Source of the DNA: Chrysomallon squamiferum
Taxonomy: Eukaryota > Animalia > Mollusca
Direction of reading: 5' to 3'
NCBI GenBank assembly: GCA_012295275.1
Contig: CM022675.1
Location: forward strand, 3,038,001 to 3,102,000
DNA length: 64,000 nucleotides
Shown piece by piece: positions 23,746-26,700 of this stretch. Below the pieces are notes generated by a model that was given only the letters and a program-made list of their open reading frames with translations, made no database searches and was not told the origin of the DNA. The first letter of the stretch is position 1. Each line of letters starts with the position of its first letter. A program made the translations under genes and the position numbers.

Positions 23746-26700
23746 ATGGCTGAACTATGGGGTACAAGTCGTTTGCTTTTTACAATTTTCGGCGGGATTT
23801 TATGTCAGCTGTTTTCTGTGTCAGGTAAAATATTTTAATTACAACTGAAAAACGTTTGTTTTTATTTTCCTATTTTTGTGGTTATAATTTTGTGAAGATA
23901 AATATTTTTGTTTTAAAAATAGTGAGACTTCCGGATTATTATTAATAAAATACGAATGTAAGGATATTATTAGTACTTTTTAATAAGAGATAGAGAGAGT
24001 TAATTTTAAAGTTTGTTTTATAAGTAAATATATTCCGTTTCATTCCAGCTACTCTCCGTATATTAAATAACGTCACATGGGATACAGCGTTTTATACATG
24101 TCATCAACATGGAGAACAGCTGTACAGTACGTCAGATATTACGTCACTAAGTGATGTCATAGCAGGATCTTACTGGATCGGAGCTAAAGTTCAGTACAGT
24201 TCATGGATGTGGACAGGTGAAGTAAACATTTATTAGTTAACTTTACTGAGCAGTTATGATCACAAAACATAAAGGAATACTCCCTCTTATAAATATATGG
24301 ATAGCATCTAGTTACGCGGTGTAAAATACGTCACAACAAAAATATCTAATTAACATGTGTATGTGTGTGTTTGTGTTTCTTTCTTATTTGTTTTTTTGGG
24401 GTGTTTTTTGTTGTTTTGTTGTTGGGTTCTCTTTTCTTCCTTTTTAAATTAATTTTACTTTGTTTTTTTTATCATCATTATTATTATCATCATCATTATT
24501 GTTTTATTATTATTACTATTATAGTTATTGTTATTATTATTATTGTTGTCGTTGTTGTTGTTCTTGTTATTATTATCACCATCATTTTTATAGTAATATA
24601 GTTGCTGTTGTTTTGTTTGTTGTTAGTACGGTTATCGAAAGTCCAACTAACAATGCAGGCATCAGAAATAAAATACATTCAGTTATATAATGTATGTGTG
24701 TATGTGTGTGTGTGAGTGTATCCTTGTGCGTGTCTGTGTTTTCGCGACTGTGTCTATCGGTGTGCCTGTCCCTGTACGTGTCTGTGAGTGTGTGTGTGTG
24801 TGTGTGTCTGTGTGTGTGTGTCTCTGTGTATGTGTCAGACCACATTTTATACACAAAATTATTGTATGCACTGTAAAATTGATTATATTAAACAAATCAA
24901 GTTTGGTTTACAGCGGATAACACACCACTGTTTGGTTACGTTGGCGAAGTGAACGAATCAAAATATTTTCAGTTTTATCAAATCAAATACGACAACCAGG
25001 CAAGCCGTTGTTACTACGAATGTCAGCAAAAAAACATTAGAGGTGTAATGTATGTGGGATTGCAGGTTGGTAACGTACATTCAATAAATATTTACATACG
25101 AAAGACAAACATATACGTACATGTATATATATATATACGTGCATACACACACAGACACATACATATAGACTCATACACACATACATACATATATATGTAA
25201 GTATATGCACACATACAGCTTCTAAACTATTTCTTTCTGCTAAAATAAAGTATATTTCGTTATAGTGACTAAAGAAGCTGTTGTTACAGTTTAGCAGCAA
25301 GGGTTATTTTATGTGAACACAGCTATATCATTGTCTGTGACTAATGTGTTACTGTTTGGAACGGGAAACATTCAGTCGGTGTGAAAGTGGTAAGAAAGAG
25401 TTATATTTGTTATTTTACAGAGAGAGAAATGTTATTGTTTTGCATGGATAAACAGGAATCAGGTTTTACGTGGATCTGTTCAAAGAGAAAATAAAACTGG
25501 TTGTCTAGGAAACGCCTATGAAAACTGTGGAACTGAAAACACATTTAGTATTTATAGCACAAGTAAAATTTTGTTTATGTCTGTAGACTTTTTTGTACTC
25601 ATTTCCTTCTCTGATATTATGGGGAATCTTCAGTTTTAATTTATTTGTTTGTTTGTTTATTTAGAAGAGATTTTTTTTTTTTTTTAATTTGCTTAATGAC
25701 ATTTTAAGATTTGATAACAATCCTGTTGCCATAGTAATTCGGAATTCCAGATTTTTTAATATGTATTTCATTAAAGAATGGAATGCTGATATCATTTCGA
25801 AAGCAGAATTTATTATTTTATTGTAATTGTTTAATAATTGGCAGAAGAACAATCTATTTACAATGATTTATCCAGTTATTCATTTATTTATTATTTTTGT
25901 TTTGTTTTACTTTATTTATTTACAGATTTTACAATGAGTTATGTTACGTGGTTACTTGATGATGATGGTGTTTGTGGCTACATTGAACAAAGCAGAAATA
26001 TGTTTGTGAAAATGGAGGAGAATTGTTACTCACAGAAAGGATTAATTTGTGACTGTGAGTCAGTATTTCTGTTTTGCATTTTTATTTTCATAAAAAAGAA
26101 ATCGTGAAATTGTATTGACTTTTTGTCGTATATAGTTTTGTTCTTAGTTTGTTTTGGTTTTGGGGTGGTTGGGCGGTTTATTTGTTTTTTGTTTTTGTGT
26201 TTTTATTATTTTAATTATTGTTTTGTGGACTTTTTCTTGGCTCCATATTTATTTATTCATTTATTTATTTGTTTGTTTATTTATTTATCTGTTTTAATTA
26301 AATGTGTATGGTGTGTGGGTGTAATAGACAATTAAAAGTTTTAATTACAAACACAAATTTATACCAGAAGAAAATCACTTCATATATATATATAAAATAT
26401 ATTTTAATCAAAAGTTTCATATTATTACATATTTGTTTCCTCATTTATTACAGGTACTGGAAATTACAACAATACTTCGTGTTATCATCATGACAAGACT
26501 CACAGCTGGTTTTCATCCAACTCAACTTGTTCATTAACAAAACTAAACAGAAACAATGCTGAACTAATTAGAAGAAAAAATGGTGGAGTACAGTACTGGA
26601 TTGGACTAAAACGTGACAGACAAATAGTTTGGTTTGACAGTTTTTACAGTGAGTTATTGTAAAACTGATTAACTCTTAAATCAAAAACTTTTGTTAATTT

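Follow-up and report, generated by a model that had tools for sequence, protein, structure and literature searches.

C-type lectin-like domains (CTLDs) use the long-loop face for ligands, the group V CTLD receptors lack the EPN and WND motifs, and vertebrate CTLD receptors of the CLEC9A type have a type II topology. The canonical WSC domain contains eight cysteines forming four disulfides. Its first and sixth cysteines (Cys1 and Cys6) are bonded to each other, as C27–C86 in yeast Wsc1 (PMC9024836) and as C122–C186 in Kremen1 (PMC5014086). In the accessible parts of these reports, Wsc1 has no glycan pocket and no binding shown (PMC9024836), the Kremen1 WSC domain contacts a protein, Dickkopf (PMC5014086), and a fungal protein with three WSC domains binds β-1,3-glucan (PMC9024836, PMC5014086). 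Glycan binding is thus not a given for a single WSC domain; WSC-type glycan binders such as SiWsc3 form a class defined by measured glucan or glycan binding.

CTLD and WSC domains have been reported together in bivalves, where CTLD proteins of uncharacterised function carry WSC as an additional Pfam-scan domain (Saco et al. 2023, PMC10140915); the accessible part of that article does not mention nesting, and one of its text supplements does not contain the word "WSC". The Gigantopelta genome paper counts CLECs, and "WSC" is absent from its main text (PMC7895826, accessible part), as it is from PMC8878817 and PMC4759782. No description of a WSC domain within a CTLD was found in the literature searched, from which subscription papers were mostly absent. 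Clusters of polymorphic single-pass transmembrane genes tied to parasite resistance are described for Biomphalaria as GRC/PTC1, PTC2, and LG5R in the accessible parts of PMC7494358 and PMC13712769. The locus presented here shares with the bivalve proteins the presence of both domains in one mollusc protein (PMC10140915, accessible part), and with the Biomphalaria clusters a tandem arrangement of divergent single-pass receptor genes undergoing gain and loss, with a proposed recognition role. The Biomphalaria ectodomains differ, being Ig-like, EGF/fucolectin, or without any known domain, and the likeness is one of cluster pattern (PMC7494358, PMC13712769, accessible parts). Both domains are known, also in combination; a WSC domain nested inside a CTLD appears to be new.

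The window, i.e., the whole 64,000-nucleotide stretch of Chrysomallon squamiferum DNA analysed, is AT-rich (GC 24–34%) and contains eight copies of the gene, A–H, on both strands. We traced gene D through 11 exons (23746–29848, + strand) with a continuous open frame of 465 amino acid residues. The predicted protein consists of a signal peptide, a first CTLD (CTLD1) split by a 98-residue insert encoded by exons 3–4, a second CTLD (CTLD2), a stalk, a membrane helix, and a tail with tyrosine motifs:

Exon 1, 23746–23824 (+): start codon and predicted signal peptide (open frame, GT donor, hydrophobic stretch, RNA joint to exon 2).
Exon 2, 24049–24216 (+): N-terminal half of CTLD1, with helix 1, Cys44, WIG, and WxW (Pfam Lectin_C below the cut-off, PDB CTLD matches).
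Exon 3, 24914–25065 (+): first half of the WSC-like insert, with Cys115 and Cys119 and a few CTLD-like residues at its start (ESM Atlas lead, RNA joints to exons 2 and 4).
Exon 4, 25421–25562 (+): second half of the WSC-like insert, with CYC, GCxGN, NCG, and SIY (exon-4 profile, highest dN/dS of exons 2–7).
Exon 5, 25926–26054 (+): C-terminal half of CTLD1, with Y-x-x-W, a shortened EPN segment, Cys197, Cys214, and Cys222 (CLEC9A match, completes the CTLD profile).
Exons 6 and 7, 26454–26648 and 26927–27049 (+): second, uninterrupted CTLD-like domain without EPN or WND (exon 6 profile against the PDB, RNA joint 6–7).
Exons 8 and 9, 28348–28404 and 28768–28818 (+): Ser/Thr-rich stalk (translation).
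Exon 10, 29344–29422 (+): one predicted membrane helix (hydropathy peak 2.75, RNA joint 10–11).
Exon 11, 29626–29848 (+): cytoplasmic tail of 73 residues with three tyrosines, in SNYERL, NEYMNV, and HVYCVM.

The sequence-only reading had proposed exons 2 and 5 as the two halves of one CTLD, with exons 3 and 4 between them as a phase-symmetric cassette. Its boundaries, motifs, and phases for exons 2–5 agree with our coordinates: all four exons have AG/GT ends, and exons 3 and 4 together run from phase 1 to phase 1 around a phase 0 intron. Removal of both exons in silico gave the in-frame junction WMWT-DFTMSYVTW, as that reading had foreseen.

The remaining copies in the window are as follows:

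Paralog A, 879–2568 (+): exons 8–11 only, the remainder lying beyond the window.
Paralog B, 3488–9076 (−): exons 2–7 and a long tail; it looks broken, with stops in exon 6 and the tail and the membrane exon out of frame.
Paralog C, 13183–21081 (−): full exon set, with a tail of 206 residues and 12 tyrosines; in this assembly, exon 3 has a stop and an altered length.
Paralogs E (exons 1–9) and F (exons 2–11), 34780–46710 (+).
Paralog G, 49269–55307 (+): exons 2–11.
Paralog H, 56418–62563 (−): exons 1–7 and a long tail with 15 tyrosines.
Short tails (+): A, 2346–2568; D, 29626–29848; F, 46488–46710; G, 55085–55307.
Long tails (−): C, 13805–13183; B, 4136–3488; H, 57068–56418.

Exons 3–4 are present in all seven paralogs that have exon 2. 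Stops, frame changes, or absent exons affect B, C, and H in this assembly. The search for exon 1 of B and for the exon 6 acceptor and membrane exon of H found none of them; a fragment at ~9700–9510 (−), the place expected for exon 1 of B, has what we take to be a likeness to the C-terminal end of a Tc1/mariner transposase. In C, the stop and length changes lie in exons 3–4 (19867–19717 and 18211–18071, both −), and C-type exon 4 and exon 6 sequences occur as loose ends in the RNA contigs; the defects may either be allelic or stem from a faulty assembly. A 200-base N gap (48880–49079) occupies the site expected for exon 1 of G, which probably lies inside it. E has no membrane and tail exons, F has no exon 1, and a 26-base membrane-exon remnant (41062–41087) precedes exon 2 of F; since all junctions are in phase 1, the two could instead be a single gene whose ectodomain is doubled. 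The exon 7 acceptor of B (6198–6073, −) and H (58278–58153, −) is located three bases upstream of the D-type acceptor, and RNA contigs show the matching joint letters, which indicates that B/H-type genes are spliced. The tails form a short class (A, D, F, and G) of 73 residues with three tyrosines and a long class (B, C, and H) of 206–215 residues with 12–16 tyrosines in repeated D/T-Y-x-x-hydrophobic motifs. Two tail classes on one ectodomain family could mean paired receptors that signal differently.

Outside the window, homologs were found only in the vent snail Gigantopelta aegis, as three proteins: LOC121392170 (P0003), LOC121385101 (P0014), and LOC121385106 (P0005). These were the only homologs among 697 candidates in a word-based search with P0003; the same type of search found no homolog among six candidates for exon 2, one homolog among 4258 longer proteins for alignment A7, and none in metagenome contigs. 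Some uncharacterised proteins of bivalves may be similar. The three proteins show the nested order in one frame with the insert in 3/3, and are ~40–65% identical to single exons of the window, but they are annotated as uncharacterised and their models are incomplete. Residues 231–272 of P0014, after the split CTLD, weakly match a DDE transposase (E 0.0078); this public model is probably mis-joined.

Pfam Lectin_C (PF00059; cut-off 22.6 bits) is not reached by any of these sequences: exon 2 scores 13.9 bits (profile 2–57), and the best value, 19.7 bits, was obtained for P0003, a Gigantopelta homolog having been used in place of the spliced gene D protein in the whole-protein Pfam scans and the AlphaFold models. 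A profile built from the family alone places the N-terminal half of E-selectin at 8–65, Wsc1 at 81–152, and, weakly, the C-terminal half of E-selectin at 166–196 in PDB searches, and exon 5 alone best matches CLEC9A in the PDB, over its C-terminal part (E 0.34). We obtained an outside CTLD profile by a motif scan for bacterial CTLDs, with a usable frame in 65 of 121 loci; 42 stretches were picked by eye, of which 41 match Pfam Lectin_C. On this profile, exons 2 and 5 joined score 19.6–24.5 bits, exon 2 alone 14.3–16.0 bits, and the same sequences with the insert retained 10.5–14.1 bits, so that removal of exons 3–4 raises the score. With the insert removed, the two exons align as a single domain (profile 14/16–121) in four of five paralogs (F, G, H, and B) and in both Gigantopelta proteins, which bears out the proposed N- and C-terminal halves; the exception is gene D itself, with an alignment covering only 15–89 of the 125 profile positions. 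When exon 5 is shuffled and joined to exon 2, the real score is reached in 5 (D), 2 (F), 2 (G), 0 (H), and 2 (B) of 500 trials each, and the alignment is not lengthened by joining exon 2 to exon 7. In alignment A12, whose rows were our choice out of six trial sets, 22 bacterial CTLDs open one gap of ~98 columns, with the four core cysteines and WIG/WxW in register. Three alignments (A6, A9, and A11) were left out of the folding, as exon 4 or the WSC rows were misplaced in them. Alignment A10 assigned the CTLD loop to the beginning of exon 3; the profile does not favour this placement, exons 2 and 3 together scoring no higher than exon 2 alone.

Structure prediction was expected by the sequence-only reading to give a discontinuous CTLD. 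AlphaFold with family rows alone reached a mean pLDDT of 40; this model has weak structural matches to Kremen1 (Z 4.2), Wsc1 (Z 3.4), and tetranectin (Z 3.4), and no Foldseek match at E 0.001. With CTLD rows in the alignment, pLDDT was 62–89 over residues 1–50 and 69–86 over 171–200 in blocks of 10 residues, and nearly all of the 50 structural matches listed for this homolog model were CTLDs spanning ~1–202 (best Z 10.2, rmsd 2.8, 84 residues aligned). Nearly all of its Foldseek matches listed were CTLD-containing entries, none passing E 0.001. The insert is of low confidence and not WSC-like in this CTLD-guided model, and no single model contains both domains with confidence; the CTLD-guided model is a statement of compatibility with a split CTLD, not an independent proof. 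The ESM Atlas gave only leads at 0.80 (Lectin_C, PAN) for residues 28–226 of P0003. For CTLD2, the exon 6 profile retrieved CTLDs in five of five PDB rows (E 0.05–1.7), and the domain itself scores weakly (2–12 bits) on the bacterial profile.

Taken together, a WSC-type domain nested in a CTLD is very probably a real architecture. Exons 2 and 5 would fold together as one CTLD with the bonds Cys44–Cys222 and Cys197–Cys214, and the split CTLD would hold the insert at the usual sugar-binding place. CLEC9A, CLEC12A, CD94, and CD72 (PF00059) are Ca2+-independent membrane receptors that share with the gene D protein WIG/WxW, four core cysteines, tyrosine motifs, and the lack of EPN, QPD, and WND. 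As to the double-loop CTLD fold with paired N- and C-terminal strands, Z is up to 10.2 in the CTLD-guided model and only 3.4 in the family-only one. In contrast to the CLEC9A-type receptors, the gene D long loop is interrupted by a 98-residue domain, its score stays below the Pfam cut-off, and its predicted topology is type I instead of type II.

The six cysteines of the gene D insert are located at positions 115, 119, 137, 139, 161, and 169. No Pfam WSC match (PF01822; cut-off 27.8 bits) was obtained for exon 3, exon 4, P0003, P0005, or P0014. The family-only profile matched yeast Wsc1 (PDB 7PZ2) at E 8.4e-5, and at E 0.0026 in another search. Exon 3 retrieved WSC clusters at ranks 2–3 of the ESM Atlas (scores of 0.85 and 0.84, a lead only). 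The exon-4 profile found eight proteins, including five Pfam WSC proteins, two true homologs, and one unrelated protein; used alone against the PDB, it found unrelated chains only. Exons 3 and 4 score 24–34 bits, matched by 0/1000 shuffles in each of five paralogs, on a WSC profile that is biased in that it was made from 15 repeats of four WSC proteins found via exon 4. As to the PAN/apple-type fold of WSC domains, residues 85–157 of the pLDDT-40 model have Kremen1, apple domains, and Wsc1 as their top rows (Z 3.4–4.2). By alignment, the missing cysteines correspond to Cys1 and Cys6; the joint absence of one disulfide pair is what a retained WSC fold would lead one to expect. Wsc1 and Kremen1 (PDB 5FWS) share with the insert the CxxxC helix, the CxC strand, the CxG..CG loop, and the terminal S-x-Y strand, and, like the predicted gene D protein, carry their WSC domain extracellularly on a type I membrane protein that has a Ser/Thr stalk. 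The insert differs in having six cysteines without the Cys1–Cys6 pair, CGT for CGG, no Pfam match, and a nested rather than serial position. The description of exons 3–4 as WSC-like with six of the usual eight cysteines is thus upheld: judged from its sequence, the insert is WSC-like, though it fails both the Pfam score and the eight-cysteine criterion.

The insert enters directly after WxWxD, in the long loop and just upstream of the EPN position. EPN, QPD, and WND are absent from the entire gene D protein, as had been claimed for both of its CTLDs. In alignment A12, exon 5 keeps the Y-x-x-W of the long loop and has the next cysteine within seven residues, leaving the EPN block without a counterpart. 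The earlier idea that the module had been grafted in place of the sugar loop is right as to the long loop, but the module sits upstream of the EPN position, and the shortening there, in exon 5, is separate; the sequence indicates that the sugar site is lost beside the insert, not overwritten by it. With the EPN segment shortened and WND missing, a protein lacking the insert would still have no sugar site. Other CTLD genes are known to have an intron 3' of the WIGL motif (PMC514892, accessible part). Such an intron, here in phase 1 and following the WIG motif, may have received the WSC module by exon shuffling.

The insert and exon 2 differ strongly in their variability. Among six paralogs, the insert varies at 44 of its 98 columns and exon 2 at 6 of 55 (Fisher p 1e-5, the paralogs not being independent). 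The variation in the insert is concentrated in short stretches, and its six cysteines and core residues are kept in 6/6 aligned exon sets. The dN/dS ratios are 0.21, 0.39, 0.83, 0.67, 0.55, and 0.22 for exons 2–7, respectively, and none exceeds 1. With C and E added, exons 5 and 6 vary at least as much as exon 4 (dN 0.29 and 0.18). The dS of exon 2 is also lower (0.17), and part of its uniformity may be due to gene conversion.

Since the insert is far more variable than exon 2, it is likely to be the target-recognising part. On balance, we read the cluster as a tandem family of expressed, predicted type I receptors in which the six-cysteine WSC-type insert in the CTLD long loop, likely included in most or all transcripts, is probably the variable part that recognises targets. 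CTLD1 would act as a scaffold presenting the WSC-like domain on the ligand face, and binding would signal through the tail tyrosines, a step based on the roles of tyrosine motifs in receptor tails. The ligand may be a glycan, as the sequence-only reading supposed, or a protein. It is unlikely, though not negligibly so, that the nesting is real and the insert a structural or loosely constrained appendage, with Ca2+-independent CTLD surfaces recognising the target as in protein-binding NK-cell CTLD receptors; the near-invariant exon 2 may then bind a fixed partner. Relaxed constraint fits the exon 4 ratio below 1 together with equally variable exons 5–6, which differ strongly between C/E and the other types; the strongest purifying selection falls on exons 2 and 7, and both CTLDs lack EPN and WND like the group V receptors. 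However, a mere appendage agrees poorly with a position on the long-loop face that CTLDs use for ligands, with the conserved cysteines and core residues, and with variation clustered in short stretches.

The variable part also lies next to a recombination breakpoint. Gene E has a mosaic structure: up to the end of exon 4 it resembles F, and beyond that C. The continuous E–F similarity at 35149–36607, a block that includes exon 2, ends at exon 4; E and F are 92–93% alike in exons 3–4 and 60–75% in exons 5–7. The trees of the exon 3–4 and exon 5–7 partitions are mutually rejected (AU p 0.016 and 2e-71). On these alignments, gene E is a recombinant with its breakpoint at the 3' edge of the insert, the one clear case in the family. 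Exon 4 of H is closest to B (93%) and exon 5 of H to G (96%). Diversity in the family would come from copies being duplicated, lost, and recombined with one another, and not from splicing.

RNA contigs from three runs of one study contain joints 1–2, 2–3, 3–4, 6–7, and 10–11 at the predicted sites, joint 2–3 in two of the three runs and joint 3–4 in all three. In one run, a loose contig end crosses from exon 4 to exon 5 in a paralog sequence. Divergence from gene D amounts to several percent in most contigs, which stem from paralogs or alleles and represent the family rather than gene D alone. An exon 2–5 joint, which the sequence-only reading had proposed to look for, was absent from the six joints for 24030–26075 in the contigs of these three runs, which drop rare forms, and from the 15 of 30 joints listed in another RNA contig search. 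A joint at 25023–25963 (depth 5.4, CA..GA ends) does not lie at splice sites and was set aside. The insert is likely retained in most or all transcripts.

The proposal that splicing toggles the insert, exons 3–4 being an alternatively spliced cassette by which one gene yields receptors with or without the WSC module, is accordingly improbable in our estimate. The skipped form is in frame and scores as one CTLD, and the pyrimidine share of the acceptor is lower at exon 3 (0.40–0.55) than at exon 5 (0.70–0.75). Class 1-1 symmetry marks exon shuffling in extracellular modules, and such symmetric modules are also well suited to exon skipping in animals (PMC8001218, accessible part). However, eight of the ten gene D introns are in phase 1 and 1-1 symmetry is common to exons 2, 5, 6, 7, 8, and 9, so that most exons are equally skippable and the symmetry of exons 3–4 is mainly a sign of exon shuffling. 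Moreover, only inclusion joints were observed, with exon 2 joined to exon 3, two exons would have to be skipped together, and the skipped form would regain no sugar site. That there is no nested domain at all, exon 2 being a CTLD remnant (or pairing with exon 7), exons 3–4 a free WSC-like domain, and exon 5 a small disulfide module, is very improbable: every exon alone falls below the family cut-offs and the family-only model is poor, but the three C-terminal CTLD cysteines of exon 5 are in register with the 22 bacterial CTLDs, shuffled exon 5 rarely equals the real score, exon 7 does not extend the exon 2 alignment, and the lone cysteine of exon 2 needs a partner.

Returning to the nested architecture with a recognising insert, we suggest as a tentative possibility that the family represents a hidden mollusc class of immune or symbiont-recognition receptors, with a constant CTLD scaffold, an exchangeable WSC/PAN variable region in its ligand loop, recombination between tandem genes at the cassette border, and two tyrosine-tail classes, which Pfam would have missed because of the nesting. 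As neither domain reaches its Pfam cut-off, Pfam-based counts of mollusc lectins would miss the family, and the present analysis provides a structural reading for a snail receptor cluster that databases label as uncharacterised. Both CTLD and WSC domains are common and normally serial; the nested case shows the long loop to be capable of accommodating a foreign binding module. Should specificity reside in the insert, the cluster would offer a testable case of invertebrate recognition diversity without somatic gene rearrangement.
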